Source: Escherichia coli (lineage in GTDB: Bacteria > Pseudomonadota > Gammaproteobacteria > Enterobacterales > Enterobacteriaceae). From it: a stretch of DNA of 64,000 nucleotides. The position numbers and the translations under genes were made by a program. The notes under the pieces are model-generated. The model made no database searches. It was not told where the DNA came from and was given only the letters and a program-made list of their open reading frames with translations. Location of the stretch: the NCBI RefSeq assembly GCF_030384885.1, contig NZ_CP128613.1. One strand, written 5' to 3'. Positions 1-59,626 of the stretch are shown here, piece by piece; positions within the stretch are counted from its first letter, which is position 1; each line of letters begins with the position of its first letter.

Positions 1-111
1 CACTTCAAAGTAGCGAAAATAGTTACCGTGCCAGGCCACGCCCATCATATCGACGTCGTGAAATGGAATGATCAGCTCGACTTCAGCGGTAAATCGGGGA
101 TCGTTAAGCAC
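1..111 (-). CDS. hotdog-fold acyl-CoA/acyl-ACP thioesterase, N-terminal fragment (gene runs off window start)
   Basis: Reverse complement of 1-111 reads VLNDPRFTAEVELIIPFHDVDMMGVAWHGNYFRYFEV from a GTG at 109-111, immediately after the stop of the upstream gene; the ...HDVD..GVAWHGNYF pattern is typical of 4HBT/YbgC-type thioesterases. Start codon uncertain. Confidence 0.5.
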   Translation of the reverse strand, partial: MLNDPRFTAEVELIIPFHDVDMMGVAWHGNYFRYFEV

Positions 112-114
112 CCT

Positions 115-1791
115 TTACTCCTTGTCCTGGACTTCCGGCAGTTGCCAGAAATCGAAAAAATTAAACCAGTCGAGGGGCGACTGGAGCGCGTGATGTTCCA
201 GACGCGCGGCGTAATGATCGATAGCGTTTTGCAGCGCCTGCTGGCGTTCGCCACGCGGCAACAGCAGCGGGTCGGCAAAGGTTTCGCAGTGAATATGCAG
301 CTTGCCGTGCTGGCGCAGGGCGAAAATCAGATTCACCGGGCAGCGCAAAATAGAGGCGAGAATAAACGGCCCCTGTGGGAAGGGCGCAGGCTGGCCCATA
401 AACGGACTCCAGCAGACGCGCCAGTCGCCGCCGCGTTGCGGGTTGATGGCGATGCGGTCAGCAACAATCGCCACCCATTCGCCGTTATCCAGCTTCTCTT
501 TTAGCAGGATGGCGGTGTCCGGGCCGATATCCGTCACCGGGAGCAGGTTGATGCCTGCCTGCGGGGCCATCTCCTGCATTATCTGTTTAAAACGTTGGGC
601 GTTTTCGCTAAACACCAGCGCGTTAATGGTTTTGTAGCCCTGAATTTTTGCCAGCGCCCGGCACACTTCCACATCGCCAAGATGCGAGGCCAGCAGCAAT
701 TTGCCGCGCGGATCGCTGACGTTAAGTGCCGCTTCTGCGCCTGGTGCAAACAGCACATCACGCCCGAGTTGCAGCTCGCCGCGCCAACTGGCGATTTTGT
801 CGAGCATGGCGTTGCCGAAACGTAGAAAGTGCTGATAGCTGTTGAGTTTTGCTGCCTGTGGTTGATGCTGGCGCACACGGGCGAGCCAGTCTTGCGACGC
901 TTTGCGCGCCCGGCTGGCGGTGAGCCAGTAGACGCCCACCACCGGGTAAAGCAGCGCGGTAAACGCCGTTCTTCCCAGCAGGCGCCAGACCAGCAGCATC
1001 AGGCGCATTCCCCATAATCCTTTCACTTCGCTCTGCCGCGCCCAGTGGCTGGAAGAGTGGCGCATCAGCAGCGAAGGAATACGCGGCAACATGCCGAAAA
1101 ACAGGCGCGTGTGCATGAGCGAGATGCGGACGTTATCTTTCAGGGCATCAAAGTGCGAAAGCCCGTCCAGCGGATAGGTGACGCGAGTCGGCACGAAATA
1201 GCTGGTGTTTCCCTGCCAGTAGAGGCGCACCATCACTTCGGTGTCGAAATCCATCCGCTTGCCGATGGTGGCGTGTTTTGCCAGTTGCAGCGTTGGCGCA
1301 ACCGGATAAACGCGAAAGCCGCACATGCTGTCTTTCAGTTGCAGGGAGAGCGTTTCGATCCACACCCAGACGTGGGTGACCCAGCGCCCGTACAGCCGTG
1401 AGCGGGGGATGGAGTCATCGTAAATTGGCTGGCCGGAGATCAGTGCCGCAGGGTGTTGTTCAGCGAGTGCCAGCAGTTTGGGGATATCTTCAATCGCGTG
1501 CTGACCGTCGGCATCCACCTGTACCGCATGGCTGAACCCCGCGTCTGCCGCTGCCTGTAAGCCGCGCATTACCGCCGCGCCTTTGCCTGCGTTTTCTGCC
1601 AGGCGAATTAATGTCACGCCAGGCTGTTCGGCAACCAGATTATCCAGTTGCTGTTGCGTGGCGGCATCGCTGCCGTCATCCACCACAATACAGGGCAGAT
1701 TAAATGGCTTAAGACGCGCCAGCACGCCCGGCATCATTGCGCCGTGGTTGTAGCAGGGGATCAACACGCAGGGAGAAAAGTTTACCGACAT
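115..1791 (-). CDS. bifunctional family-2 glycosyltransferase / LpxL-like lipid acyltransferase (ApeJ-like)
   Basis: 558-aa ORF; N-terminus has GT-A signatures (LIPCYNH, VVDDGSDA, VDADGQH); C-terminal half resembles lauroyl/myristoyl (HtrB/LpxL-family) acyltransferases. Family assignment by pattern recognition, not search. Confidence 0.8.
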   Translation of the reverse strand: MSVNFSPCVLIPCYNHGAMMPGVLARLKPFNLPCIVVDDGSDAATQQQLDNLVAEQPGVTLIRLAENAGKGAAVMRGLQAAADAGFSHAVQVDADGQHAIEDIPKLLALAEQHPAALISGQPIYDDSIPRSRLYGRWVTHVWVWIETLSLQLKDSMCGFRVYPVAPTLQLAKHATIGKRMDFDTEVMVRLYWQGNTSYFVPTRVTYPLDGLSHFDALKDNVRISLMHTRLFFGMLPRIPSLLMRHSSSHWARQSEVKGLWGMRLMLLVWRLLGRTAFTALLYPVVGVYWLTASRARKASQDWLARVRQHQPQAAKLNSYQHFLRFGNAMLDKIASWRGELQLGRDVLFAPGAEAALNVSDPRGKLLLASHLGDVEVCRALAKIQGYKTINALVFSENAQRFKQIMQEMAPQAGINLLPVTDIGPDTAILLKEKLDNGEWVAIVADRIAINPQRGGDWRVCWSPFMGQPAPFPQGPFILASILRCPVNLIFALRQHGKLHIHCETFADPLLLPRGERQQALQNAIDHYAARLEHHALQSPLDWFNFFDFWQLPEVQDKE

Positions 1792-2135
1792 AGGCGGATC
1801 TTCCCGCTACTGGCGGTGTGGCGGGCGTCACCGTCGTGACGCTGATAACTAAAGCTCAGAATCTGGCGTTCTTCCTGCCAGCTAAGCGTGAGTGTGACGC
1901 GGTTATCCGGCAGCAATGGAGCCTGGAATTTGATGTTCTGAATGGAGTGAAAACGCCAACCGGGCGCGAGCAGGGCAAGCGCGTAACTCATCGCCCAGTC
2001 GATTTGTGCCACGCCGGGGAGTAATGGTTGTACGGCAAAATGACCGCGAAACCAGAACAGATCTGCCCTGAGATGCAAAACAATCTCAAGGTGATTCACT
2101 TGTGCCTGATGGCGCTCGATTTCATGGGGCTTCAT
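1782..2135 (-). CDS. FabA/FabZ-like hotdog 3-hydroxyacyl-ACP dehydratase
   Basis: Motif FRGHFAVQPLLPGVAQIDWAMS resembles the FabZ motif F.GHFP..P.MPGV; start placed at the ATG (2133-2135) preceded by AGGAG rather than the track's upstream ATG at 2165; overlaps the upstream gene's stop by 14 nt. Confidence 0.75.
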   Translation of the reverse strand: MKPHEIERHQAQVNHLEIVLHLRADLFWFRGHFAVQPLLPGVAQIDWAMSYALALLAPGWRFHSIQNIKFQAPLLPDNRVTLTLSWQEERQILSFSYQRHDGDARHTASSGKIRLCR

Positions 2136-3483
2136 GAAATAACTCCTGTAATTGCGCATAGACACGCTTGTTCATACTGTTTACTGGCATTTCATCAATA
2201 ACGCGCCAGTAACGCGGAATAGCAACTGGCTCCAGCGTCGGGCGCAGTAATCGCCGCCAGGCCATTTCCTGGCTGTGCCCGCCGCCGTTTTGCCATTGCA
2301 GGCGAGCTTCGTCATCCAGCACCAGCAAAACGCCAATACTCTGACGCCCGCCGCGCGTAACGGGAACTGCCGCCGCCTCGTGAATACCGTCCAGCGCCAG
2401 CAGACGTTGTTCTACTTCCTGGAGTGAAATGCGTTTTTCTTCAATCTTAACGATGCGTCCGCGACGCCCCATCAGATGGAACTGGCCGTCTTCGCTAAAC
2501 TGCAAGATATCGTCGAGTAACAGGCCGCTATCTTCCTCCATCAGAGGTGAAAAGAGACGAAAGGCATCATCTTCGGCCTGGAACTGCATACCTGGAAAGG
2601 GCCGCCAGCGGCGTTGCTCTTGTTCGCGGTAACGCCAGGCGATGACGCCGGTTTCCGTGCTGCCGTAGATTTCATCAGGCCAGACGCGCAGCCAGCTCGC
2701 GGTGTGTTGTACGTCCTGCCACGGTAGTTCACCGCCAGCGGACAGAAGCACCTGAACGGGGGGCGGGGATAGCTGAGCATCCAGACGCTTCAAAAATGCC
2801 GGGCTGCTGATGAAGATATAGCGATGCTGATGACTCAACGCGGCAAACTGTTCGACATACCAGAGCATGGCGGCATGGAGCGGTAATCCCAGCGCCATGG
2901 GCAGGAAAACGCGAAAAGTCAGGCCGTACAAATGCTGCGGCAATACGGAACCGATGACACGACATCCGGCAAGACGTGCGCCTAATCGTTCAGCCAGCAG
3001 TTCTGCTTCACGGTCCAACAAACGAACAGGTTTAATCACCCGCTTCGGCTGCCCTGTGGAACCAGAGGTAAACAGCTCGATATAAGCGTCTGGCGCTATA
3101 GCGGCAAAGGTGAATGATTGTGTCGCGACTTGTGGGGAGCTTGCTACCAACTGCAATGAACCTTGGCAGTTAAGTTCGCTGTCGCTAAGCACACCATCGA
3201 ACAGTTCACGTTGCTCGTTAAGCTGGATGACGCGGTTATGCCCCGGAAGCACCGGTGTTTTTCCGGCGTGTAGCGTGGCGAGCAGGGCAACGATAAACAG
3301 ATAGCAGTCCTCAAAGCACAGCGCCCAGCGTTCACCTGGTTGTTGCTGTAAACGGCAGATAAGTTGCGAGACATCGTGACGCAAATCGCCCAGCGTCCAG
3401 GTGCTTTCGTCCAGCCACGCAATGGGCGTGTCATCAGAGCGTGGCGCAGTCAGCCAGCGTGCAAGCGGTAAGGTCTGCTTCAT
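2122..3483 (-). CDS. AMP-dependent synthetase/ligase (acyl-ACP/acyl-CoA synthetase-like)
   Basis: TSGSTGQPK AMP-binding motif; start placed at the ATG that overlaps the upstream TGA as ATGA (3480-3483); the track ORF extends to 3522. Confidence 0.8.
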   Translation of the reverse strand: MKQTLPLARWLTAPRSDDTPIAWLDESTWTLGDLRHDVSQLICRLQQQPGERWALCFEDCYLFIVALLATLHAGKTPVLPGHNRVIQLNEQRELFDGVLSDSELNCQGSLQLVASSPQVATQSFTFAAIAPDAYIELFTSGSTGQPKRVIKPVRLLDREAELLAERLGARLAGCRVIGSVLPQHLYGLTFRVFLPMALGLPLHAAMLWYVEQFAALSHQHRYIFISSPAFLKRLDAQLSPPPVQVLLSAGGELPWQDVQHTASWLRVWPDEIYGSTETGVIAWRYREQEQRRWRPFPGMQFQAEDDAFRLFSPLMEEDSGLLLDDILQFSEDGQFHLMGRRGRIVKIEEKRISLQEVEQRLLALDGIHEAAAVPVTRGGRQSIGVLLVLDDEARLQWQNGGGHSQEMAWRRLLRPTLEPVAIPRYWRVIDEMPVNSMNKRVYAQLQELFHEAP

Positions 3484-4061
3484 GAGCGATCTCTTTTCAT
3501 CACCTGACGGCGCACCAGCCATTCACCAGCCATTAACGTCCCCATCAACAAATAAGCAATCATGCCGTTCCAGGCAGTCCATAACGACATATCGCCATGC
3601 AGCGCGGTAAAGAGGGCAATTCCGCCGTTGATGATGAAAAAGCCGCACCAGATTTGCGTGACGTGGCGGGTATAGCGCACGCCCTTTTCCGGGAGGTCTG
3701 GCTCCTGCAAACGCGCCAGCCGCTCAACAATTGGCATTGCCGACCACAGCGAACCGCCAAAAACCGCCAGCATTACCGCGTTAACCACTACCGGGTAAAA
3801 CAGCAGTAGCTGGTGCGTTTTCAACAGAAAGCTGGCAACACACAAGGCGATACCCACAACAGCGACGATTTGTGTGACGGCTTGTAGCGGCCCGGCCTGG
3901 CAACGAGTCTGGCGCAGGCGCAATAAAAGCAGCAGCGCCATCAGCGGCAACAGCCAGTGCAGGCCGTTATGTGCCAAACCAAGCCAAATCACAAACGGCC
4001 AGGCGAGCAGCAATAATCCAGTCAGCAGTTTAATAATCGGTAGCGAGCGAATGCCCGACAT
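3480..4061 (-). CDS. integral membrane protein of the lipid-biosynthesis cluster
   Basis: 193-aa ORF, several hydrophobic segments, co-directional and translationally coupled within the cluster. Confidence 0.7.
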   Translation of the reverse strand: MSGIRSLPIIKLLTGLLLLAWPFVIWLGLAHNGLHWLLPLMALLLLLRLRQTRCQAGPLQAVTQIVAVVGIALCVASFLLKTHQLLLFYPVVVNAVMLAVFGGSLWSAMPIVERLARLQEPDLPEKGVRYTRHVTQIWCGFFIINGGIALFTALHGDMSLWTAWNGMIAYLLMGTLMAGEWLVRRQVMKRDRS

Positions 4062-4065
4062 CAGA

Positions 4066-4317
4066 TCAGGCTTCTTGTAGCAGGCGTTCTACGGCCTCTA
4101 CGACATCCCGGACTGTACGCACTGCTTTAAACTCTTCCGGCTTGATTTTCTTACCGGTTTTCTTTTGCAGATGCACAATCATGTCAACGGCGTCGATGCT
4201 GTCCAGTTCCAGATCTTCGTACAGGCGCGCTTCAGGTTTGATGTCCTGCGGTTCGATTTCAAACAGCTTAACCAGCAGAGCTGAGACTTCCTGATAGACG
4301 GTTTGTTGTTCTGTCAT
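4066..4317 (-). CDS. acyl carrier protein
   Basis: 83 aa, acidic, LDSIDAVDMI phosphopantetheine-attachment motif. Confidence 0.85.
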   Translation of the reverse strand: MTEQQTVYQEVSALLVKLFEIEPQDIKPEARLYEDLELDSIDAVDMIVHLQKKTGKKIKPEEFKAVRTVRDVVEAVERLLQEA

Positions 4318-4328
4318 GATGGCTTTCC

Positions 4329-4586
4329 TCAGGCACGTTGTGCAGCAATAAAAGAGGCCAGAGTGGCGACAGAGAAAAAGTGCTGACGCATCTCTTCACT
4401 TTCCGCAGAAAGTACAACGCCATATTCATTTTTCACTGCCAGCCCCAGTTCCAGGGCATCGATAGAGTCCAGCCCTAAACCGTCGCCAAACAGTGGCGCG
4501 TCGGTATCGATATCATCAGGAGCCAACTCGTCCAGATTGAGGGTGCTGATGATGAGATTTTTAATTTCCAGATAAAGCGCTTGCAT
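4329..4586 (-). CDS. acyl carrier protein
   Basis: 85 aa, GLDSIDALELG phosphopantetheine-attachment motif; 5' end overlaps the upstream acyltransferase gene, so the exact start is uncertain. Confidence 0.8.
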   Translation of the reverse strand: MQALYLEIKNLIISTLNLDELAPDDIDTDAPLFGDGLGLDSIDALELGLAVKNEYGVVLSAESEEMRQHFFSVATLASFIAAQRA

Positions 4587-5382
4587 TATTTATTCCTGAG
4601 AGAGGTAAACAACCTTGTTGTAATTGAAGCAAAAGATGCCGGTTTAACTGCCTTGCTGCTAGCGCCGGTTCTTGTGAAGTTGCATCGTAAAATTTATTGA
4701 TTTCTACCCGCCCACGGACTTCAACCGTAAAAAGTGGCCTGGCAGGTGGAACGTCATACCATTTACTTTGTTTATCCAGCAGATGCTCGCTACAGCCGAT
4801 CGTCACGATGCGTAAATCGCTGGCGCAGCGCACGGCAATATTCGCCGCACCGCGCTGTAACGTCATTTTTTCACCAGGCTTCGTCCGCGTGCCTTCGGGG
4901 AAAATCAAGATAGTGTCGCCCTGTGCCAGTCGCTGTTGGCAACGGGGTAAGAGAGTTTCAGCTTCGCTGTTGATTAAATAATCTGCCGCCCGCACGACGC
5001 CGCCAAGAAAAGGATTTTTTAACAGCGCGCTTTTTACCAGGCAGTCAGTTTCTGGCATGACTGATGCCAGTAGTACGTAATCGATAAGCGTGGGATGATT
5101 AGCTACGACGAGGCAACCGCGTTCCTGACGTAAAATTTCAGCCCCATCAATACGATAATCCAGCACGCCAAGCCCTTTTGCGACTGTTAAAAACAGACGA
5201 AAACTGGCGGCAATGCTGCGACGCGCCAAACGACGGCGGCGGGAAGTGTTCCACACCAAAACTAACAGTACGTTAAACCACACCACAGAGAGTAGTAGTC
5301 CGCCGAGGCCAAACAGGGCAAAACACAACCCGGTCATAACCAGTCGCCATGTCCATTCCAGGCGTGACATCAGCTTACTCAT
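4561..5382 (-). CDS. PlsC-family (lysophospholipid/1-acylglycerol-3-phosphate-like) acyltransferase
   Basis: 273 aa; N-terminal transmembrane segment, NH-x4-D motif (ANHPTLID) and FPEGTRT motif. Confidence 0.8.
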   Translation of the reverse strand: MSKLMSRLEWTWRLVMTGLCFALFGLGGLLLSVVWFNVLLVLVWNTSRRRRLARRSIAASFRLFLTVAKGLGVLDYRIDGAEILRQERGCLVVANHPTLIDYVLLASVMPETDCLVKSALLKNPFLGGVVRAADYLINSEAETLLPRCQQRLAQGDTILIFPEGTRTKPGEKMTLQRGAANIAVRCASDLRIVTIGCSEHLLDKQSKWYDVPPARPLFTVEVRGRVEINKFYDATSQEPALAARQLNRHLLLQLQQGCLPLSGINNASALSGN

Positions 5383-6125
5383 CTACGGCTCCAGCGCCAC
5401 TGTACGCGCTCACCAGGAAGTGAAAAAGCATCTGAATTTTGTAAATAGTGCTGTAAAAACAACATGCTTTGCGGCAGTGTTGTTTCATTGCCCGCAATGG
5501 CTGGCTGTGTTTCACATTGCCACTCATCGCCAGCTTCAATCACCAGCGCAACAGCATATGGCCAGGTCGGCATTTCTGCTGGGAGCTGCGGATGATAGAA
5601 CTCAGGTAGAAAGCCATCAAAATCGACCATCAACACACGCTGGTATCCCGCTTGTAGCAGGCTAAGCACTTCACTCAAACCTTGCTGGAAAGTGTCGCGA
5701 CCAGCCGAAAGCGATGACGAAACGATCGGCTGTTTGGCCGCAATGGTCAGGTTACCCACGGAAGAGTTGTGTACTGAAAGTGCAAAGTCGGTGGGGGAAA
5801 GCGCCTGTTCAGTTGCCAGTGCATGAACAATGCGGTAATTGCGCTCCAGTTCGCCATGACGACTGGTATACAAAACGGCGTCTGGCTGATGGCGGCGTAG
5901 CATTGCCAGGCCGCATTCAACAGCCAGTTTGCTGCCTGAACTGAGGCGGCGGGCGGTCATCATTGGCAGTTCACTTAATTTTGCCAACGGCGCGGCAGGG
6001 TCAATCGCCCACGGCTGGCGCGACCATGCTTGCCATTGCTGCGCTTCGCTAAGTCCAGGCGCCAGTGCCTGCCAGTCGGTAATATTTAATGTAAATTTCA
6101 TCAACGCGCGCCCGCGGTAAACCAA
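5379..6125 (-). CDS. hypothetical protein, possibly beta-ketoacyl-synthase N-terminal-like domain (chain-length-factor-like)
   Basis: 248-aa ORF with ATGA overlap to the downstream acyltransferase; function inferred only from position in the cluster and vague resemblance; needs an HMM search. Confidence 0.6.
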   Translation of the reverse strand: MVYRGRALMKFTLNITDWQALAPGLSEAQQWQAWSRQPWAIDPAAPLAKLSELPMMTARRLSSGSKLAVECGLAMLRRHQPDAVLYTSRHGELERNYRIVHALATEQALSPTDFALSVHNSSVGNLTIAAKQPIVSSSLSAGRDTFQQGLSEVLSLLQAGYQRVLMVDFDGFLPEFYHPQLPAEMPTWPYAVALVIEAGDEWQCETQPAIAGNETTLPQSMLFLQHYLQNSDAFSLPGERVQWRWSRR

Positions 6126-6141
6126 AATTATTAAGTGACGA

Positions 6142-7209
6142 TTATTTCTTTTGGCATATCAAAAGAGTATGCCCAACGCCTAAATTATCGTGGCGCTCTG
6201 CTACCTGAAATCCTGCTTTATTCAGATAGTCGTAAAATTTCTCTGCACTATAGAAACGGCTGTTACCGTTTGCCATGCAGGTGAAATAAAGTGAGGACGC
6301 GTTCAGGCTAAATGATGCTGCTTCAAACCGCTGCGCATCCCAGAACAACTCCATGATGCAAACTTTTGCGCCAGGCTTCATTACGCTGGCGATTTTGCTG
6401 AGTATGCTAATTATTTGTTCGGGTGAAAAACAGTCTAAAAATTGGCTCATCCACCAGATATCAGCCTCGCCCGGTAATGGGGCATCGCTTAGCATATCCA
6501 CCGCATGGAAATCTATGCGATCAGAAAAACCTGCATTCGCGATATTTTCTTTCGCTAGTACGATTTGTTGTGGCAGATCTAATAACGTCACGGCGATGTT
6601 TTCATTGTATTTGCAGCAACGCAAAGCCCACTTACCCGTATTGCCGCCTACATCGTACAATGTTGTGGGGTTGTTGGCGAATACATAAGGCAGTGCGGCG
6701 TTAAATGCGCCATCTGAATAGTAATGATCAAACGCAAACCAGCTTTCACGAGCGGCATCTGGTAATTGTGAAAGTGCGGGATATATCGTCGACCAGTCGC
6801 CAAATACTTTTAACCCGGACGGTTTTCCTTCATTGAGTGAATCGGCGAGGAAGAAGAGCCCCTGATAGCAGACATCCTGGGTGAAATCCATATTCACGCG
6901 AGTCATAGTGTCATGCAGGAGGTAATGACCGATTTTCGCCAGGTAATACATTCCCTCTTTACAGGTAATAATTCGCCCGCTTAAGCCCATATCTAACAGA
7001 ACGCTGGCCGCATATTCGTTGATATGGCTATGTTCGGTGATATCAGCCAGCGTTGCGCCATGTTTGCCTTGCCGATCCAGATATGAAAGTACACCCGCAT
7101 TACGTAGGCAGAGAGCTGTTTGAAAAAGCATGGGGGCAAAGGCAATGCGTTGAGCTTCGGTAATCGCATCCAGTGCGCTAAGAGAATCCTGTTCGTACAT
7201 GTTGGGCAC
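6142..7209 (-). CDS. class I SAM-dependent O-methyltransferase
   Basis: 355 aa; VGGNTGKWA glycine-rich SAM-binding motif followed by LLDLP...DM..D, typical of O-methyltransferase family 2. Confidence 0.85.
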   Translation of the reverse strand: MPNMYEQDSLSALDAITEAQRIAFAPMLFQTALCLRNAGVLSYLDRQGKHGATLADITEHSHINEYAASVLLDMGLSGRIITCKEGMYYLAKIGHYLLHDTMTRVNMDFTQDVCYQGLFFLADSLNEGKPSGLKVFGDWSTIYPALSQLPDAARESWFAFDHYYSDGAFNAALPYVFANNPTTLYDVGGNTGKWALRCCKYNENIAVTLLDLPQQIVLAKENIANAGFSDRIDFHAVDMLSDAPLPGEADIWWMSQFLDCFSPEQIISILSKIASVMKPGAKVCIMELFWDAQRFEAASFSLNASSLYFTCMANGNSRFYSAEKFYDYLNKAGFQVAERHDNLGVGHTLLICQKK

Positions 7210-7268
7210 AACCTGTTAAGAGGGAATTAAATTATTATCGGACCGAAGCGGCCCGACTTTAGGGGAAA

Positions 7269-7658
7269 TTACAAATCTGCGCCAGCCGACAAATTCAGTT
7301 GAATATCTTTGTCGAGATTGCGGACCCAGCGATTATAGTTTTTATGAATTTGTCCGCCTGATGCTTGCAGGTTCTGACTATTTTCATAATTGATATCGTA
7401 GCTGGATGCCGTGTAGTTAATGCGAATTTCGGCTGAATGATCGCGTGACTGTTGACGTGCTTTAATTACGCCTTGTCCGGCTTCGGACATAATCCATTTG
7501 CGTTCAACGCCAGCTTTCAGAATCGCTTTTTTCACTTGTTCCGGGGTATGACCAGCGCTGACGGTTGAGTGAACCTGATCAATTGGCGCAGTACGCGCGC
7601 AACCCGCTAAAGCACCCACAACAGCAATAGCCGCAAACCATTTCATGTAATGTCTCAT
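7269..7658 (-). CDS. small lipoprotein, first gene of the cluster in this window
   Basis: 129 aa; signal peptide with lipobox LAGC (MKWFAAIAVVGALAGC); exact start (7658 vs 7646) uncertain. Confidence 0.65.
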   Translation of the reverse strand: MRHYMKWFAAIAVVGALAGCARTAPIDQVHSTVSAGHTPEQVKKAILKAGVERKWIMSEAGQGVIKARQQSRDHSAEIRINYTASSYDINYENSQNLQASGGQIHKNYNRWVRNLDKDIQLNLSAGADL

Positions 7659-8037
7659 TAGAATCCCATTAAAGTATTGTTTTTACGAGTAAAGCAAGAT
7701 TTAACTGTAATTGCTGGCATCACTATTCTTTATTTAGCGAAAAAATTACTTGTGAGATAAGTCAGTAAGTGCACATCAGAGTAAAAATTTCTGAAATGAC
7801 TAAATTACTGCCAGCGGGGACCAACTATAAGTGAGTGAGAAAAATGAGGCAATAAAAATAACAGATTGTTATCAGTGCATTCTTTGAGAGGGATTTAATC
7901 GCTATTCGGCGTTTATATATATTTGACTTAAGGAATGGTTTTTATAAATTAATTGTCTGAATAATGTTTCTTCATTTCCTCAAATCAAATGGCCACTGTT
8001 AGATAAACGGTGGCCATTGCCTGCTCAGGAGGTGCTA

Positions 8038-9087
8038 TTAACCTGGTAACCGACTTTTCGGTCTGCCCGGCCCCAGTAAGATCGCCAGTTTGCTACCGCC
8101 TTTGGTGGTTTCCATCCAGATTTTACACACGCTGGTTAATGGTACCGAAAGTAGCATTCCAACCGGGCCGAGCAGCCATCCCCAAATCAACAATGAAAGA
8201 AATACCACCATGGTGGACATCCCCAGGCGATGGCCCATCATCCGCGGTTCTAAAATATTGCCGATGACCATATGGACAACTAAAAACAATGCGCCGACCA
8301 GAATACATTCGTAAACGCCATTAAACAGCAGCACCTGAATCATTGGCGGTACGGCGGAAATTACCGCGCCGATATTGGGGACGTAGTTAAGCAAAAACGC
8401 CAGTACCGCCCACATCAGCGCAAACTGTACACCCATAAGTTCCAGCCCCAGCCAGACGATAATGCCTGTCCATAAACTTAGCAGTGTCTTCAATGCAAGA
8501 TAGTGCGAAACACCTTTTAAGGCGCGGTGTAGTCCGGCGATGTGAATCTGTGGATTATTCAACGCAAAACGCATTTTGTAAGGGACGTGGCGCACTTCAA
8601 ACAGCATGAAAACTACGGTCATCACCAGCAAAAGCACGCTCGCCATTGCCCCGGAAAGCCCGGTCATTAGCGCCGTGGTGAAGGTAACCACTTTTTCCGA
8701 GTCCATCCGCTGCAGCATTCGCTCCGGCGACATATGCAAATTAAGAAAAGGCAACATCTCCTGCAATTTAAAAAGCTTGCGCGTCAGCTCCTTATTAAAC
8801 TTCGGCAGCATAGAGATAAATTCGTTAAACGAAGCTGCCAGTACACCGACCAGTGCGGTAAGTGCGATCAGCATCACCACCACCACAATCGTAATTGCAA
8901 CGGGGCGTTGTACTCCGCGACGAATAAACCAGGTGACGAGCGGGTTGAGGACGATGGCAAAAAACAGCGCCAGTAACAGTTGCACAATGATATCTGCCGC
9001 TGCGTGAATGCCCGCGAGGATTACTACCAGCGAGGCCAGTTTAAGCAGAATGTGCATGCCCGTTTTATCGGGTTGAGGGGTTTCCAT
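8038..9087 (-). CDS. yhhT: AI-2E/PerM-family membrane transporter YhhT
   Basis: Protein from METPQPDKTGMHILLK recognised as E. coli YhhT (349 aa); start at the ATG preceded by AGGAAG rather than the track's longer ORF. Confidence 0.93.
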   Translation of the reverse strand: METPQPDKTGMHILLKLASLVVILAGIHAAADIIVQLLLALFFAIVLNPLVTWFIRRGVQRPVAITIVVVVMLIALTALVGVLAASFNEFISMLPKFNKELTRKLFKLQEMLPFLNLHMSPERMLQRMDSEKVVTFTTALMTGLSGAMASVLLLVMTVVFMLFEVRHVPYKMRFALNNPQIHIAGLHRALKGVSHYLALKTLLSLWTGIIVWLGLELMGVQFALMWAVLAFLLNYVPNIGAVISAVPPMIQVLLFNGVYECILVGALFLVVHMVIGNILEPRMMGHRLGMSTMVVFLSLLIWGWLLGPVGMLLSVPLTSVCKIWMETTKGGSKLAILLGPGRPKSRLPG

Positions 9088-9218
9088 TGGGGCTTCCTTG
9101 TGACTTTTTGTATTAAGTGTAGCGGGAGTCACGCCAGCAATATTCTGATTCTTACTGCTGATTTTCACGTCAGCACGTGGTAAAAATGAAACACTGTTGT
9201 AAAAATGTGGTGATCCTC

Positions 9219-10436
9219 ATGCCCGAACCCGTAGCCGAACCCGCGCTAAACGGATTGCGCCTGAATTTGCGCATTGTCTCCATTGTCATGTTTAACTTCG
9301 CCAGCTACCTCACCATCGGGTTGCCGCTCGCTGTATTACCGGGCTATGTCCATGATGTGATGGGCTTTAGCGCTTTCTGGGCAGGATTGGTTATCAGCCT
9401 GCAATATTTCGCCACCTTGCTGAGCCGCCCTCATGCCGGACGTTACGCCGATTTGCTGGGACCCAAAAAGATTGTCGTCTTCGGTTTATGCGGCTGCTTT
9501 TTAAGCGGTTTGGGGTATCTGACGGCAGGATTAACCGCCAGTCTGCCCGTCATCAGCCTGTTATTACTTTGCCTGGGACGTGTGATTCTCGGCATTGGGC
9601 AAAGTTTTGCCGGAACAGGGTCGACACTGTGGGGCGTTGGCGTGGTTGGTTCGCTGCATATCGGGCGGGTGATTTCGTGGAACGGCATTGTCACTTACGG
9701 GGCGATGGCGATGGGTGCGCCGTTAGGTGTCGTGTTTTATCACTGGGGCGGCTTGCAGGCGTTAGCGTTAATCATTATGGGTGTGGCGCTGGTGGCCATT
9801 TTGTTAGCGATCCCGCGTCCGACGGTAAAAGCCAGTAAAGGCAAACCACTGCCGTTTCGCGCGGTGCTTGGGCGCGTCTGGTTATACGGCATGGCGCTGG
9901 CGTTGGCTTCTGCCGGATTTGGCGTTATCGCCACCTTTATCACATTGTTTTATGACGCTAAAGGCTGGGACGGTGCGGCTTTTGCGCTGACGCTGTTTAG
10001 CTGTGCATTTGTTGGAACGCGATTGTTATTCCCTAACGGCATAAATCGTATCGGCGGCTTAAATGTGGCGATGATTTGCTTTAGCGTTGAGATAATCGGC
10101 CTGCTACTGGTTGGCGTGGCGACTATGCCGTGGATGGCGAAAATCGGCGTCTTACTCGCGGGGGCGGGGTTTTCGCTGGTGTTCCCGGCATTGGGCGTAG
10201 TGGCGGTAAAAGCAGTGCCGCAGCAGAATCAGGGGGCGGCGCTGGCAACTTACACCGTATTTATGGATTTATCGCTTGGCGTGACCGGACCACTGGCTGG
10301 GCTGGTGATGAGTTGGGCGGGCGTCCCGGTGATTTATCTGGCGGCGGCGGGACTGGTCGCAATCGCGTTATTACTGACGTGGCGATTAAAAAAACGGCCT
10401 CCGGTGGAAGTACCTGAGGCCATCTCATCATCTTAA
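9219..10436 (+). CDS. yhhS: MFS transporter YhhS
   Basis: Recognised as E. coli YhhS from MPEPVAEPALNGLRLNL (405 aa); the track ORF starts 14 codons upstream. Confidence 0.93.
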   Translation: MPEPVAEPALNGLRLNLRIVSIVMFNFASYLTIGLPLAVLPGYVHDVMGFSAFWAGLVISLQYFATLLSRPHAGRYADLLGPKKIVVFGLCGCFLSGLGYLTAGLTASLPVISLLLLCLGRVILGIGQSFAGTGSTLWGVGVVGSLHIGRVISWNGIVTYGAMAMGAPLGVVFYHWGGLQALALIIMGVALVAILLAIPRPTVKASKGKPLPFRAVLGRVWLYGMALALASAGFGVIATFITLFYDAKGWDGAAFALTLFSCAFVGTRLLFPNGINRIGGLNVAMICFSVEIIGLLLVGVATMPWMAKIGVLLAGAGFSLVFPALGVVAVKAVPQQNQGAALATYTVFMDLSLGVTGPLAGLVMSWAGVPVIYLAAAGLVAIALLLTWRLKKRPPVEVPEAISSS

Positions 10437-10439
10437 AAC

Positions 10440-10997
10440 TTACTGAATAACCAGCGTATTAATGATGTTTTCTGCGGTGGTCTGTGCTTTTTGCTGATCG
10501 TCAGCTGGCAGCGTAATTTGCATGGTCAGCAGTTGATTACCCACGTTACCCAGAATAACGGAAGAGTACGCCGTCTGGCCTTTCGCGGAGATAATGCTGT
10601 CTAACTGCTGCATTTTGTGACCTTTCAGCTCAATGGCTTTGTTGGTCACTACTTGCAGCTGTGGATCGCGGCTACGTTGCTGATCTTCCAGGCGCTTCGC
10701 CAGCACCGCCAGATCTTCTTTCGGATCATCGCCCATGATGACGATGACTGCTTTTTGCCCGGTGGCGTCGGACCAGACATGCATGTTATTAGCCTGCGTT
10801 CCCAGCTTACCGCTCTGGTCGGTCATATCCGCTGGCAGCGAGAAACTTAACTTGCCATCAAGCAGGTTGACGGGATTCCCGGTAGCGTTACTTTCCGCGA
10901 CCGAACCCTGCGCCGTAGCGTTAGTGTCTTTATCATCACAGGCCGCAAGCCCCATAACCAGCAGGCCAATTCCGACATATTTAACCAGATTGCGCAT
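10440..10997 (-). CDS. dcrB: periplasmic lipoprotein DcrB
   Basis: Recognised from [24 protein letters not shown] (185 aa); lipobox LAAC. Confidence 0.92.
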
Positions 10998-11069
10998 TGA
11001 CTTCTTCCTTTCGATAAACGGCCATAACGGCTCATTCATCCATCTTATCACAACTCTGATAACGAACCT

Positions 11070-11735
11070 TTAACTCGCCTGCAAAGCGTTGATTTCGGAT
11101 TTATCTGCCAGTCTTTTCAACAGCATATTGAGTAATACGCCATACATTGGCAGGAAGAAAACGATACTGATTAACACTTTGAAACAGTAATCGACCAGCG
11201 CGATTTCCATCCAGTGTTCAGCCATAAAGGCATCTGGGCTGCGCCAGAAGGCAATGAAGAAGAAGGCCAGCGTGTCGCTGACGTTACCAAACAGGGTGGA
11301 AGCCGTCGGTGCCAGCCACCAGCGACGACTCTGACGCAGGCGGTTAAAAACGTGCACGTCGAGGATTTGCCCCAGCGCGTAGGCCATGAAACTGGCGGTG
11401 GCGATACGGGCGACAAACAGGTTGAAGTGGGCGAGCGCGCCGAATCCCTGCCAGGAACCCATATAGAACAGCGACGAGATGACGTAGGAGATCAGTAACG
11501 CCGGGATCATCACCGCAAAGATGATACGACGGGCCAGCGGTGCGCCAAAAATACGCACAGTCAGGTCGGTAGCAAGGAAAATAAACGGAAAGCTAAACGC
11601 GCCCCAGGTGGTATGGAAACCAAAAATGGATACGGGAAGCTGAACCAGATAGTTACTGGAGGTGATCACCAACAGATGAAATAACGATAACCAGAACAAC
11701 GCTTTATAGCGTTGAGTTTGCGAGAAAACGTTCAT
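11070..11735 (-). CDS. yhhQ: queuosine-precursor transporter YhhQ
   Basis: 221-aa membrane protein recognised as E. coli YhhQ. Confidence 0.93.
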   Translation of the reverse strand: MNVFSQTQRYKALFWLSLFHLLVITSSNYLVQLPVSIFGFHTTWGAFSFPFIFLATDLTVRIFGAPLARRIIFAVMIPALLISYVISSLFYMGSWQGFGALAHFNLFVARIATASFMAYALGQILDVHVFNRLRQSRRWWLAPTASTLFGNVSDTLAFFFIAFWRSPDAFMAEHWMEIALVDYCFKVLISIVFFLPMYGVLLNMLLKRLADKSEINALQAS

Positions 11736-11954
11736 ATTGTACCTTTTTGATTAACCATTGGGGTGAGGGAACCCAATACGTACGACACGTCTGTTACCTT
11801 AACATAATAACGTGCTGACCCTTTTTTCGAGCCGCCGCATGATACTGCTTTACGTTGACAATGCAATGGTTAATTTTCGCGCAATCGTTAACCTGGTTTG
11901 CTTACGGACTCACAGGGCGTAAACTAGCGCCGTTTTTTATGTGATGAGAAGAAA

Positions 11955-12200
11955 ATGACCGATCTCTTTTCCAGCCCTGACCACACACTCGACGCACTTG
12001 GCCTGCGCTGCCCGGAACCCGTGATGATGGTGCGCAAAACTGTGCGCAATATGCAACCTGGCGAAACGTTGCTGATTATTGCTGATGATCCGGCGACGAC
12101 ACGCGATATTCCTGGGTTTTGTACCTTTATGGAACACGAACTGGTTGCTAAAGAAACGGATGGACTGCCTTATCGTTATTTGATTCGTAAATCGGGGTAA
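11955..12200 (+). CDS. tusA: sulfur carrier protein TusA
   Basis: 81 aa with the CPEP active-site motif ([11 protein letters not shown]); recognised as E. coli TusA. Confidence 0.96.
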
Positions 12201-12254
12201 GGTGGATCAGGCTAGCGGACCGATCGCGCTCAATTTTGCGGCTTGCAACCGGTT

Positions 12255-12391
12255 TGTAGGACGGATAAAACGTTCAAGCTGCATCTGGCGATACGGTGCG
12301 CAATGCCTGATGCGACGCTGTCGCGTCTTATCATGCCTACGAGTTCAATGCCCTGTGTAGGCCAGATAAGGCGTTTACGCCGCATCCGGCA
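12255..12391. repeat. BIME / REP element cluster
   Basis: Copies of the REP palindrome (e.g. tgtaggccagataaggcgtttacgccgcatccggcac and gcctgatgcgacgctgtcgcgtcttatcatgcctac) in the tusA-zntA convergent intergenic region. Confidence 0.8.
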
Positions 12392-12414
12392 CGCAAACGT
12401 AATGGAATGCACAA

Positions 12415-12723
12415 ATGGATTATTTAATTCCAGTTTGTCTGGTATTGCTGGGATTGCTCGCGATCTTCACCCCCAATTGGCTGATCCCTGTTTTTATCGT
12501 CGTGGGGGGATGGCTGGGGGTACTTGCCTGGGGTTGGCTCTGGCTAATGATTTTTTTACCTTTACTTAACGGTGTCGGGCTTGCTTATGCCCTGTGGTTG
12601 ATGTTCAAAAGGCCATCCATAGCATCCCGCCTGGTTGCTGCATGCTGTGTTATCTCCGTCATTCTGATGTTAGCGCTTTATTATGCTTTCCTGACTATGC
12701 CGCCGTTCCCGCCTCAGCACTAA
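12415..12723 (+). CDS. hypothetical small hydrophobic protein (unverified ORF)
   Basis: 102-aa ORF directly after the BIME; Trp/Leu-rich with 2-3 predicted transmembrane segments (GGWLGVLAWGWLWLMIFLPLL); weak Shine-Dalgarno; could be a chance ORF. Confidence 0.3.
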   Translation: MDYLIPVCLVLLGLLAIFTPNWLIPVFIVVGGWLGVLAWGWLWLMIFLPLLNGVGLAYALWLMFKRPSIASRLVAACCVISVILMLALYYAFLTMPPFPPQH

Positions 12724-12755
12724 GCCTGATAGCCAGAGGCTATCAGGCAACACTT

Positions 12756-14954
12756 TTACTTCCTGCGCAACAATCTTAACGCATTCGCTGTCACCAGCAC
12801 CGTCGCACCCGTATCTGCCAGCACCGCCAGCCATAGTCCGGTCATCCCTAACAGCGTTGTGACGAGGAAGATCCCTTTCAGCCCCAGCGCAATGGTGATG
12901 TTCTGGCGGATATTGGCGTGAGTGGCGCGTGCCAGTTCAATCATCTGCACCAGGCCGCGCAGGTGGTTATGGGTTAATGCAGCGTCGGCGGTTTCCAGCG
13001 CCACATCTGTGCCACTGCCCATTGCAATCCCTATGGCGGCAGCTTTCATGGCGGGCGCGTCGTTAATACCGTCACCGACCATCGCCAGAGGCGCATGTTG
13101 ATTCAGCTCGGTCACCGCTTTGACTTTATCTTCTGGTAATAGGCCCGCTTTAAATTTCAGCCCCAGTTCACCGGCGATTGCCGCCGCTGCGTGTGGATTA
13201 TCGCCAGTGAGGATCACTCCTTTGACGCCCAGGGCGCTCAGTTCGCTGATGGCAGTTGCGGCGTCGGCGCGCAGGGTATCCTGCAATGCAATGACACCCA
13301 GCACTTCATCGTTACGCACCACCAGTACTACCGTTTGCCCGGCGCTTTCCAGTTCGTTAATTAAACCAGCAAATGCAACAGCCGGATGTTTTCCGGCAGC
13401 GCATATCAACACGCGCTCACCGTTAATCAGTGCTTCAATACCAGACCCGACCAGCGCCCGCTGTGATTCGGCGGCGGGAATGGCGAGTTCAGCAACCTGT
13501 GCTTCGCGTACGATGGCTTGCGCCAGTGGATGCGTCGCGCCTTGCTCGACCGCCGCTGCCAGTGTCAGCAGTTCAGATTCACTAATACCCGTTGCCGGAT
13601 GAATCGCGGTAACGCGCGGTTTACCGACGGTCAGCGTGCCGGTTTTATCAAACGCCACCTGGGTAACACGACCTAGTTGTTCCAGCGCCGCACCGCCTTT
13701 AATCAACGCCCCATGACGCGCTGCTGCCGCCAGCCCGGAGGTGATCGCCGCAGGTGTTGAGATCACCAGCGCACACGGGCAGCCAATCAGCAGCAGCGTC
13801 AGCCCTTTATAAATCCACTCCTGCCAGCTTGCGGCAAACAGCAGCGGTGGCACCAGCGTCACCAGCAGGGCGACGGCCATAATCGCTGGCGTGTAAATAC
13901 GGCTGAAACGGTCGATAAACCGCTCAATGGGCGCGCGGCGCTCTTCGGCTTCTTCGATCAGTTTCAGAATCCGGTCAATGGCGCTGGCACCCGGTTCTGA
14001 CAGCACTTCCAGCGTTACCAGACGGTCTACGCTGGTGGCGCCTGCAGGAACTTTATCACCCGTCGCGCGCTCCACCGGAATGGATTCGCCGGTCAGGGCG
14101 CTTTCATCAAAACTGGCAAAGGGCGAGAGCAGTTTACCGTCGGCAGGTAAACGCCCACCTGCCGCAACTTCGATAACATCGCCCGGACGCAGGCTGTTAA
14201 TTGCTACCTCTTCACGCTTGCCATTACGCAGGCGCGTGGCGGTTTCCGGTTTCAGCGCCATTAACGCGCTGACCCCTTGACGCGCGCGGCTGGCGGCCCA
14301 GCCTTCCAGTCGTTCACCAATCAAAAACAGCAGCAACACCATCGCAGCTTCAGCCGTTGCGCCAATAAACAGCGCACCAATAGCGGCTACGCTCATTAAG
14401 GTTTCAATAGCGAAGTAGCTGCCGGATTTGATCAGCCGTAATGCCTGACGAGCAATCGGGTACAGCCCAACCAGCGTGGTCGCGATAAACGCCAGTTGAC
14501 CGAACGGATGATTAAACTGCTCCAGACCCCAGCTGATTGCCATCAACACGATTAGCGTAATCAGCGGCAGATTCTCTTTCAGGCGTGATGCTTGCGGTTC
14601 TACGGCTGCCTGTTCATCGCGCAGGGAATAGCCCGCTTTTTGCACCGCAGATTCAACTTGTGCACGGATGTCATTGTCGGCATCAACCACCAGTTTTTCG
14701 GTGGCGAACAGCACCTGCACCTGATTCACGCCTGCAAGCTGGCGCACGGCATTTTCTACCTTGCGCGCGCAGGCGGCGCAGTCCATGCCGCTGACTTTCC
14801 AGCTATAGCGGGTGCCGGAGACGTTTTCAGAGAGCGTTGGCGTGCTGGAACATGCGCCGTCGCAGCAACAGTCGTTGACGTTCTGTACCGTGGTTAGCGG
14901 TTTGAACGCAGAAAATTGAGGGGCTTTCTTGCCGTGATTGTCAGGAGTCGACAT
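12756..14954 (-). CDS. zntA: Zn(II)/Cd(II)/Pb(II)-translocating P-type ATPase ZntA
   Basis: 732 aa; GMDCAACARKVE metal-binding motif, CPC, DKTGT; recognised as E. coli ZntA. Confidence 0.97.
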   Translation of the reverse strand: MSTPDNHGKKAPQFSAFKPLTTVQNVNDCCCDGACSSTPTLSENVSGTRYSWKVSGMDCAACARKVENAVRQLAGVNQVQVLFATEKLVVDADNDIRAQVESAVQKAGYSLRDEQAAVEPQASRLKENLPLITLIVLMAISWGLEQFNHPFGQLAFIATTLVGLYPIARQALRLIKSGSYFAIETLMSVAAIGALFIGATAEAAMVLLLFLIGERLEGWAASRARQGVSALMALKPETATRLRNGKREEVAINSLRPGDVIEVAAGGRLPADGKLLSPFASFDESALTGESIPVERATGDKVPAGATSVDRLVTLEVLSEPGASAIDRILKLIEEAEERRAPIERFIDRFSRIYTPAIMAVALLVTLVPPLLFAASWQEWIYKGLTLLLIGCPCALVISTPAAITSGLAAAARHGALIKGGAALEQLGRVTQVAFDKTGTLTVGKPRVTAIHPATGISESELLTLAAAVEQGATHPLAQAIVREAQVAELAIPAAESQRALVGSGIEALINGERVLICAAGKHPAVAFAGLINELESAGQTVVLVVRNDEVLGVIALQDTLRADAATAISELSALGVKGVILTGDNPHAAAAIAGELGLKFKAGLLPEDKVKAVTELNQHAPLAMVGDGINDAPAMKAAAIGIAMGSGTDVALETADAALTHNHLRGLVQMIELARATHANIRQNITIALGLKGIFLVTTLLGMTGLWLAVLADTGATVLVTANALRLLRRK

Positions 14955-21792: not shown

Positions 21793-22896
21793 ATGAATAT
21801 AAAGGGTAAAGCGTTACTGGCAGGATGTATCGCGCTGGCATTCAGCAATATGGCTCTGGCAGAAGATATTAAAGTCGCGGTTGTGGGCGCAATGTCCGGT
21901 CCGGTGGCCCAGTACGGCGACCAGGAGTTTACTGGCGCAGAGCAGGCAGTTGCGGATATTAACGCTAAAGGCGGTATCAAAGGCAACAAACTGCAAATCG
22001 TAAAATATGACGATGCCTGTGACCCGAAACAGGCGGTTGCGGTGGCGAACAAAGTCGTTAACGACGGCATTAAATATGTCATTGGCCACCTCTGTTCTTC
22101 ATCAACGCAGCCAGCGTCTGACATCTACGAAGACGAAGGCATTTTAATGATCACCCCAGCAGCAACCGCACCAGAGCTGACCGCCCGTGGCTATCAGCTG
22201 ATCCTGCGCACCACCGGCCTGGACTCCGACCAGGGACCGACGGCGGCGAAATATATTCTTGAGAAAGTGAAACCGCAGCGTATTGCTATCGTTCATGATA
22301 AACAGCAATACGGCGAAGGTCTGGCGCGTGCGGTGCAGGACGGCCTGAAGAAAGGCAATGCTAACGTGGTGTTCTTTGATGGCATCACCGCCGGGGAAAA
22401 AGATTTCTCAACGCTGGTGGCGCGTCTGAAAAAAGAGAATATCGACTTCGTTTACTACGGCGGTTATCACCCGGAAATGGGGCAGATCCTGCGTCAGGCA
22501 CGCGCGGCAGGGCTGAAAACTCAGTTTATGGGGCCGGAAGGCGTGGCTAACGTCTCGCTGTCTAACATTGCGGGCGAATCAGCGGAAGGGCTGCTGGTAA
22601 CCAAGCCGAAGAACTACGATCAGGTTCCGGCGAACAAACCCATTGTTGACGCGATCAAAGCGAAAAAACAGGACCCAAGCGGCGCGTTCGTCTGGACCAC
22701 CTACGCCGCGCTGCAATCTTTGCAGGCGGGCCTGAATCAGTCTGACGATCCGGCTGAAATCGCCAAATACCTGAAAGCGAACTCCGTGGATACCGTGATG
22801 GGGCCGCTGACCTGGGATGAGAAAGGCGATCTGAAAGGCTTTGAGTTCGGCGTATTTGACTGGCACGCCAACGGCACGGCGACCGATGCGAAGTAA
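21793..22896 (+). CDS. livJ: Leu/Ile/Val-binding periplasmic protein LivJ
   Basis: Recognised from [23 protein letters not shown] (367 aa). Confidence 0.96.
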
Positions 22897-22939
22897 TCAT
22901 TAATCGGCAACTTTGGGTTGCCGCCAAATTGCTAATATC

Positions 22940-23050
<111 letters not shown>

Positions 23051-56649: not shown

Positions 56650-56674
56650 CTTTTGAGAGAACGGAATCAGCGCG

Positions 56675-58269: not shown

Positions 58270-58376
58270 TTCCCTGACTCAAAAAGTAGGTCAGATTGTT
58301 GACAAAGTGCGCTTTGTTCATGCCGGATGCGACATGAACGTCTTATTGGCCTACAAGACCATGCAAATTGTAGTGG

Positions 58377-59626
<1,250 letters not shown>

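Follow-up and report, generated by a model that had tools for sequence, protein, structure and literature searches.

The aryl polyene cluster and its overlapping genes

We examined a 64,000-nucleotide (nt) stretch of Escherichia coli DNA (assembly GCF_030384885.1, contig NZ_CP128613.1; hereafter the window) and in particular the overlapping start and stop codons of a gene cluster at its left end. In the Prokaryotic Genome Annotation Pipeline (PGAP) record, the cluster consists of 18 co-directional minus-strand genes flanked by yhhT and acpT. Their products are, in order, a lipoprotein, a methyltransferase, a ketosynthase chain length factor, a lysophospholipid acyltransferase, two acyl carrier proteins and a membrane protein, then an AMP-binding enzyme, an ApeI-family dehydratase, a GT2/acyltransferase, a thioesterase and LolA-like, MMPL and DUF3261 proteins, and finally a ketosynthase (KS), an ApeP-family dehydratase, FabG2 and a second KS. 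Gene for gene, this content and order match the table of apeA to apeR in strain CFT073 (Johnston 2021, PMC8253772), in which the cluster, APE_Ec, comprises c1204-c1186 (Cimermancic 2014; Johnston 2021, PMC8253772). The two clusters are collinear, with 90.7% nucleotide identity over 14.95 kb (14,951 aligned bases). Pfam and NCBIfam domain searches agree with an aryl polyene (APE) assignment, the signature domains ApeI-like (PF22818, E = 1e-39) and Ketoacyl-synt_2 chain length factor (PF13723, E = 1.5e-66) both being present. Judged by its sequence, the cluster is the APE biosynthetic gene cluster of E. coli in its acpT-linked version.

The CFT073 cluster directs the synthesis of a cell-bound yellow aryl polyene pigment, as established by heterologous expression (Johnston 2021, PMC8253772). 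The window takes in apeA to apeJ plus the opening 111 bases of apeK, while the remainder of the cluster, up to apeR, and then acpT lie beyond its left edge; the whole cluster spans 1-7646 of the window and 6044-14111 of the locus to its left (L001). The first 8 kb of the window are 100% identical to the chromosome of E. coli 2013C-4282 (NZ_CP027579.1). The region was found in 825 of 5426 complete E. coli genomes, at least one of which carries two copies. The genes within the window are as follows.

7269-7646, minus strand: apeA, lipoprotein, first gene of the cluster (PGAP coding sequence; gene order as in Johnston 2021, Table 1); 68 nt before apeB, without overlap
6142-7200, minus strand: apeB, S-adenosylmethionine-dependent O-methyltransferase (Pfam Methyltransf_2, NCBIfam FlxJ-family methyltransferase); 40-nt gap to apeC
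5379-6101, minus strand: apeC, ketosynthase-like chain length factor, called "KS-like" in an earlier note on this DNA (Pfam PF13723, E = 1.5e-66); ATG at this position in 79/79 species
4561-5382, minus strand: apeD, lysophospholipid acyltransferase (Pfam PF01553); an LNRxWR motif before the internal Met16 backs the overlapping start
4329-4586, minus strand: apeE, starter acyl carrier protein (Pfam PP-binding; role from PMC12624758)
4066-4317, minus strand: apeF, the second of the two acyl carrier proteins; spacers of 11 nt to apeE and 4 nt to apeG
3480-4061, minus strand: apeG, membrane protein without a Pfam match, named COG4648 in the literature
2122-3483, minus strand: apeH, 4-hydroxybenzoate adenylating acyl-ACP (acyl carrier protein) synthetase, the "ligase" of the earlier note (Pfam AMP-binding); homologues mostly 449-453 amino acids (aa)
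1782-2135, minus strand: apeI, ApeI-family 3-hydroxyacyl-ACP dehydratase (Pfam PF22818, E = 1e-39, residues 1-117 on profile positions 1-119)
115-1791, minus strand: apeJ, GT2 domain and C-terminal acyltransferase domain (Pfam GT2 from residue 8); the peptide PCVLIPCYNHG backs the overlapping start
1-111, minus strand: 5' end of apeK, thioesterase; 3 nt past the apeJ stop

The earlier note had reported two ATGA overlaps, a 14-nt and a 10-nt overlap and an acyl carrier protein start lying within the 3' end of the acyltransferase gene, and had argued from them that the open reading frames (ORFs) are real, co-translated and stoichiometrically linked. Direct extraction recovered every one of these overlaps at the coordinates given there, on the minus strand, and supplied the length of the last, 26 nt.

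5379-5382, minus strand: ATGA, apeC stop and apeD start, 4-nt overlap
4561-4586, minus strand: ATGCAAGCGCTTTATCTGGAAATTAA, apeE ATG to apeD TAA, 26-nt overlap
3480-3483, minus strand: ATGA, apeG stop and apeH start, 4-nt overlap
2122-2135, minus strand: ATGAAGCCCCATGA, apeI ATG to apeH TGA, 14-nt overlap; the position of the ApeH-ApeI fusion linker in other lineages
1782-1791, minus strand: ATGTCGGTAA, apeJ ATG to apeI TAA, 10-nt overlap

For the whole cluster, the 18 junction distances in nucleotides are +68, +40, -4, -26, +11, +4, -4, -14, -10, +3, -4, -32, -4, +1, -4, -1, -4 and +1, negative values being overlaps. At the 26-nt apeD/apeE overlap, the usual TGA, which lies within the apeE Leu-Glu codons, is GGA in E. 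coli, and apeD is two codons longer, running to TAA.

Conservation of start codons and junctions

The PGAP starts are the same start codons as those of the overlapping ORFs. For comparison, one genome per species (GTDB) was scanned with an ApeH alignment, which gave 80 Enterobacterales loci with ApeH identities of 47-96%; the E. coli proteins were mapped onto these loci and all candidate starts were listed. At the site projected from the E. coli protein, every species scored had a start codon for ApeC (79/79) and ApeE (79/79), and all but one had it for ApeI (79/80). The corresponding counts were 65/79 for ApeH, 60/79 for ApeD and 67/78 for ApeJ, the remainder being mostly shifted by small indels.

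The distances between the genes recurred as well. The apeC/D junction was -4 in 63 of 79 species and -8, -1, +7 or +13 in the rest. Among the 79 species scored for apeG/H, it was -4 in 58, -8 (ATGnnTAA) in 13, -1 (TGATG) in two, +2 (TAAnnATG) in five and non-adjacent in one; all 78 adjacent junctions thus stayed within -8 to +2 despite varying last residues of ApeG and a changing motif. The 14-nt overlap of apeH/I was kept in 68 of 80 species (-4 in eight), and the 10-nt overlap of apeI/J in 70 of 80 (-7 in five, -4 in three), with -10 seen again in Gilliamella and at locus L087. Further along the operon, apeK/L was -4 in 78/79 species and apeL/M -32 in 56/76. The apeD/E junction was loose: -20 in 49/79 species, -26 in six (E. 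coli included) and a positive gap in about 20. In more distant APE clusters (including those at loci L085, L086 and L087), the same stretch was again a chain of -1, -4, -8 or -10 junctions.

In front of each overlapping start, the preceding gene favours those synonymous codons that keep a motif resembling the Shine-Dalgarno (SD) sequence. Codon frequencies in the interior of the same genes of the same species served as the background.

5389-5393, minus strand: TGGAG, SD motif (GGAG) for apeD in the apeC Trp-Ser codons; Ser is AGY in 42/45 species (background 0.52)
4594-4597, minus strand: AGGA, SD motif for apeE in apeD; Gly is GGA in 45/48 species (background 0.10)
3490-3494, minus strand: AGAGA, weak purine-rich SD-like motif for apeH in apeG; Arg is never CGT or CGC (56/56 species; background 0.25 for the codons actually used)
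2143-2147, minus strand: AGGAG, SD motif for apeI in apeH Gln446-Glu447; Glu447 is GAG in 64/68 species (background 0.41)
1800-1805, minus strand: GGGAAG, SD-like motif for apeJ in apeI; Gly is GGG in 59/70 species (background 0.17) and Lys is AAG in 50/70 (background 0.31)

Binomial p values for the skew ranged from 1e-9 to 1e-41, a significance that is overstated since the species are related. The skew is not simply a matter of shared ancestry, because the adjoining codons are synonymously scrambled. Duplex energies were good for ApeI, ApeF and ApeD (-6.9, -6.1 and -5.6 kcal/mol) and weak for ApeH (-2.9) and ApeG (-0.8); ApeM had no motif (+0.7).

Because the junctions recur across 80 species and synonymous codons keep the SD motifs, the ORFs and their start sites can be taken as real, and this comparative evidence indicates that the overlapping starts of apeC to apeJ are genuine and not artefacts of gene calling. 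The reality of the ORFs, as asserted earlier, is borne out further by the domain matches and by deletion studies published for the CFT073 cluster, which is 90.7% identical (Johnston 2021, PMC8253772).

Translational coupling or compact packing

The reading that we consider probable takes the overlaps as true gene junctions, kept in evolution, within the 5' half of the APE operon (apeC to apeJ); neighbouring genes would then be expressed coordinately from a polycistronic mRNA with no fixed 1:1 ratio. On native E. coli gene pairs, -4 and -1 overlaps give strict termination-reinitiation coupling, all tested -4 pairs were coupled, and reinitiation has been demonstrated for stop-start distances of -8 to +10 nt (PMC10666635). 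Coupling fades within about 20-40 nt of added spacing (PMC10666635; review PMC12548453). The apeC/D (-4), apeG/H (-4) and apeF/G (+4) junctions fall within the demonstrated range; apeE/F (+11) lies outside it by one nucleotide, and apeI/J (-10), apeH/I (-14) and apeD/E (-26) lie outside it as well.

The native pairs make coupling likely, by analogy, at the two ATGA junctions (apeC/D, apeG/H), where a ribosome terminating on the upstream gene would reinitiate on the downstream one. The weak SD motif of apeH fits such a reliance on reinitiation. Where the overlap is 10, 14 or 26 nt long, the downstream start would be covered by a ribosome that is terminating or passing through. Initiation there would probably be SD-aided and tied to upstream ribosome traffic, the start being reached by scanning back over 10-26 nt or exposed by unmasking. 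The word "co-translated" used in the earlier note is, on the same analogy, plausible for the ape operon.

The overlaps leave no room for a promoter or terminator, and a promoter and terminator scan of the cluster gave counts within shuffle expectation, without excess. The sole sigma-70-like match 5' of apeA (TTGCCT, 17 nt, TATAGT at 7824-7852, minus strand) lies in the 391-nt yhhT-apeA spacer and is, by consensus, a candidate operon promoter. In CFT073 at 37 °C, all ape mRNAs were up and 14 of the 18 Ape proteins were detected (published table, its column meaning taken from the text of that paper). These expression data fit "one or multiple polycistronic mRNAs" and say nothing on stoichiometry.

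Several observations weigh against coupling. The -10, -14 and -26 overlaps exceed the range of demonstrated reinitiation, and a selected SD-like motif at every overlapping start, strong for apeI and apeD, makes independent initiation possible. Across species, apeD/E ranges from -56 to +33 nt, and therefore not every overlap is under constraint. The induction of ape mRNAs in CFT073 falls from 5' to 3', from a log2 fold change of 2.1 (apeC) to 0.3 (apeR), so that there may be more than one transcript. Finally, RNA folding of ten junction windows found none more stable than its shuffles (z from -1.68 to +1.27), which leaves the RNA-unfolding variant of coupling unsupported. Apart from its bearing on coupling, the CFT073 gradient suggests either promoter-proximal regulation at the 5' end with polarity or extra internal transcripts.

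RNA structure masking the downstream starts was accordingly discarded, the ten junction windows being indistinguishable from shuffles. A palindromic hairpin, AUUUCAUG-AAGCCC-CAUGAAAU (window 2119-2140, minus strand; z = -1.28), would pair the AUG of apeI with the region of the apeH stop. We set it aside: 7-8 pairs can form in 51/68 species, but compensatory changes are absent and most variation at its bases breaks pairs. Two His-Glu codon pairs probably account for it. A search of window positions 1-9000 against Rfam (E <= 1) gave no match.

The overlaps could also be by-products of neutral compaction, produced by stop-codon loss and start-codon drift, with each gene initiated at its own SD motif and no role in coupling. 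The selected SD motifs at all overlapping starts permit just such independent initiation, a single TGA-to-GGA change accounts for the shift from 20 to 26 nt at the E. coli apeD/E junction, and the wide span of that junction across species points the same way. So does the density of overlaps. Eleven of the 18 cluster junctions overlap, and when the cluster is set against the closely spaced pairs of the window and its flank (nik, liv, ugp, glg, fts), the overlapping fraction is equal (11/17 vs 13/24, Fisher p = 0.54). Against all E. coli unidirectional gene pairs, 24% of which lie within -8 to +6 nt (Huber 2023, PMC10666635), the cluster is tighter, with 11/18 junctions in that range (binomial p = 8e-4). 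The only feature standing out from the local operons is an excess of overlaps longer than 8 nt (4/18 vs 1/41, p = 0.03). The cluster is thus packed as operons normally are, apart from a few longer overlaps that are conserved. In bacterial operons no gene spacing is commoner than an overlap of start and stop codons, and the tie of such overlaps to coupling is textbook matter.

Compaction of this kind fits poorly with the behaviour of particular junctions. The apeG/H stop and start remain within -8 to +2 in all 78 adjacent cases while the motif and the C-terminal residues of ApeG change; apeK/L is -4 in all but one of the 79 species; apeH, apeG and apeM have a weak SD motif or none; and the native E. 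coli -4 pairs that were tested were all strictly coupled (PMC10666635). We therefore judge compaction without coupling unlikely as the full account of the overlaps, and retain conserved, coordinately expressed junctions as the preferred reading.

Stoichiometry and gene fusions

A stoichiometric link among the overlapping genes, as claimed in the earlier note, has weak and indirect support, which comes from fused proteins in other lineages. Coupled genes need not be made in a 1:1 ratio or in equimolar amounts, overlapping neighbours are not known complex partners, and the genes of the known ApeO-ApeC heterodimer lie about 9 kb apart. The interpretation of the earlier note thus stands for the reality of the ORFs, is likely for coupling and falls short for stoichiometry.

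A search with ApeI among 1.84 billion representative proteins returned 1950 matches at E <= 1e-3, of which the best 150 were examined. Twenty-two of these 150 were fusions: 20 ApeH-ApeI, one ApeH-ApeI-ApeJ (1185 aa, on at least 6 contigs) and one ApeG-ApeH-ApeI (748 aa, ApeG match E = 5e-28, a single metagenomic contig). In all 22 the ApeI domain lies at the C-terminal end of the AMP-binding enzyme. They come from Gilliamella (71 cluster members), Psychromonas, Opitutaceae and Puniceicoccales as well as from metagenomic sequence, and are located inside canonical APE clusters (for example locus L083, 8001-11558, and locus L084, 8001-9737). They are collinear with concatenated E. coli ApeH and ApeI (apeH/apeI, window 1782-3483), with a linker of 0-40 residues exactly at the 14-nt overlap. 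Compared with the E. coli arrangement, they have the same domains in the same order and cluster context, whereas E. coli makes separate proteins from overlapping genes in place of one polypeptide. Such fusions point to a special relation among the overlapping neighbours and indicate that a 1:1 ratio of the joined products is tolerated and perhaps favoured; equal amounts in E. coli are not implied.

These proteins invite a reading of the overlaps as a split polyprotein or assembly line, in which ApeG, ApeH, ApeI and ApeJ would be a physical, membrane-anchored module and the overlaps would give equimolar delivery from the same ribosomes with co-translational assembly. The number of fusions among the best ApeI matches, their setting in canonical clusters and the position of their linker favour it, as does the enrichment of closely spaced E. 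coli pairs in subunits of heteromeric complexes (30.4% vs 6.8%, PMC10666635). However, the Ape heterocomplex named from Grammbitter's in-vitro work in the summary of Johnston 2021 (PMC8253772) is ApeO-ApeC, and that summary does not name H-I or G-H. ApeH also acts catalytically on ApeE in vitro, at 10 uM against 1 mM (PMC12624758). The ApeG-ApeH-ApeI form comes from one metagenomic contig, and a fusion means that a 1:1 ratio is tolerated, not required. Grammbitter's 2019 study reportedly paired ApeI with ApeP. On balance a split polyprotein appears doubtful. Its fullest version, in which the apeG/H/I/J overlaps would mark a starter-loading and lipid-anchoring membrane module made equimolar by reinitiating ribosomes and assembled co-translationally, other lineages fusing the genes instead, seems rather improbable.

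Alternative starts and reading frames

If the true starts lay downstream (ApeD Met16, ApeJ Met19/20) or upstream (ApeH ATG at 3522), the overlaps would be artefacts of ORF calling. Internal start codons are indeed conserved at offset +15 in ApeD (69/79 species) and at offsets +18 and +19 in ApeJ (73 and 69 of 78), and at offset -13 of ApeH there is an ATG or GTG in 40/79 species. The internal Met codons, which would abolish the overlaps, are ruled out as starts by the conserved peptides ahead of them, LNRxWR in ApeD and PCVLIPCYNHG in ApeJ, the latter being the first strand of the GT2 fold in a domain that begins at residue 8. The Pfam ApeI-like profile alignment begins at ApeI residue 1, and the selected SD motifs lie 6-9 nt 5' of the overlapping starts. 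We rejected the upstream ApeH ATG at 3522 (466 aa) too: it is the ApeG Glu-Trp codons read in another frame, an in-frame stop occurs within 13 codons upstream in 53% of species, and the homologues mostly have the length of the annotated protein. Mis-annotated starts are thus very improbable. A second ATGA at 2122-2125 was discarded as the ApeI start, its ATG being out of frame with ApeI.

A programmed +1 frameshift at UUU-C, 3 nt past AGGAG near the apeH end, would yield a low-level ApeH-ApeI fusion joining ...QELF to MKPHEIE as in the natural fusions, with the ApeI frame open for 10 codons upstream and AGGAG-UUA-UUU-C-AUG resembling the spacing of the prfB shift site, but it is scarcely credible, given that the A-site codon is an ordinary His, neither stop nor rare, with no slow-decoding feature, and that the slippery Phe codon is not conserved, being TTC and unable to slip in 10/68 species.

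To the left of the window, apeL and apeM overlap by 32 nt (locus L001, 13087-13118) in the 56/76 species mentioned above, and the apeM start has no SD motif. A second ATG six codons into apeM is conserved in 65/74 species, which makes the true apeM start uncertain.

Comparison with known systems

The closest comparison is the CFT073 cluster, with which the present one shares all 18 genes in the same order and, at the compared junctions, identical distances (-4, -26, +11, +4, -4, -14, -10, +3, -4, -32, -4, +1, -4, -1, -4). The two differ in the apeB/apeA spacer (64 nt in CFT073, 68 nt here), in the length of ApeH (452 aa against 453 aa here) and in location. E. coli has two chromosomal sites for the APE cluster: yhhT/acpT, as here, and, in CFT073, an integrase-bearing island adjoining dgcT (locus L089).

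An acpT-linked cluster of O157:H7 EDL933 has two carrier proteins that are AcpT substrates, according to a statement in Johnston 2021 (PMC8253772) citing its ref. 25. Likened by description only, that cluster resembles ours in its acpT location and in two tandem acyl carrier protein genes, the counterparts of apeE and apeF. We take it to be O-island 138, and the study behind it is reportedly that of De Lay and Cronan from 2006. A literature search on AcpT and O-island 138 returned nothing relevant.

With the coupled gene pairs of E. coli (Huber 2019, 2023; PMC12548453) the ape junctions have in common co-directional genes, ATGA (-4) junctions and an SD motif inside the upstream gene, and, as is seen across the genome, the -4, -1 and -8 variants replace one another from species to species. 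Coupling was demonstrated for those pairs and is predicted for the ape genes; three of the five ape overlaps (-10, -14, -26) are longer than the tested classes, and the paired Ape products are not known subunits of one complex.

Other features of the window

Between glgP and glpD (window 55141-59554) lies an accessory insert with two genes for PstS-family substrate-binding proteins, one hypothetical gene, and an IS3-family transposase whose annotation includes a programmed frameshift. Spurious ORFs at 12243-12569 (tusA-zntA spacer) and 22655-23050 (livJ-panM spacer) translate to ...RRLRRIRH... motifs. Such translations are typical of REP/BIME (repetitive extragenic palindrome/bacterial interspersed mosaic element) intergenic repeats.

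Significance

The overlaps are the ordinary tight packing of a known APE operon, and start/stop overlaps of this cluster type were already noted in print in 2021 for the CFT073 sister cluster (Johnston 2021, PMC8253772). Our additions are comparative support for the starts, codon-level evidence for embedded SD motifs, and the H-I, H-I-J and G-H-I fusions. There is little new biology in this, and the annotated starts of apeC to apeJ are trustworthy. In refactoring the cluster or deleting genes from it, the last 15-30 nt of each upstream gene should be kept, because this stretch holds both the start of the following gene and its ribosome-binding site. The fusions found elsewhere suggest that ApeG, ApeH, ApeI and ApeJ may be a physical module.

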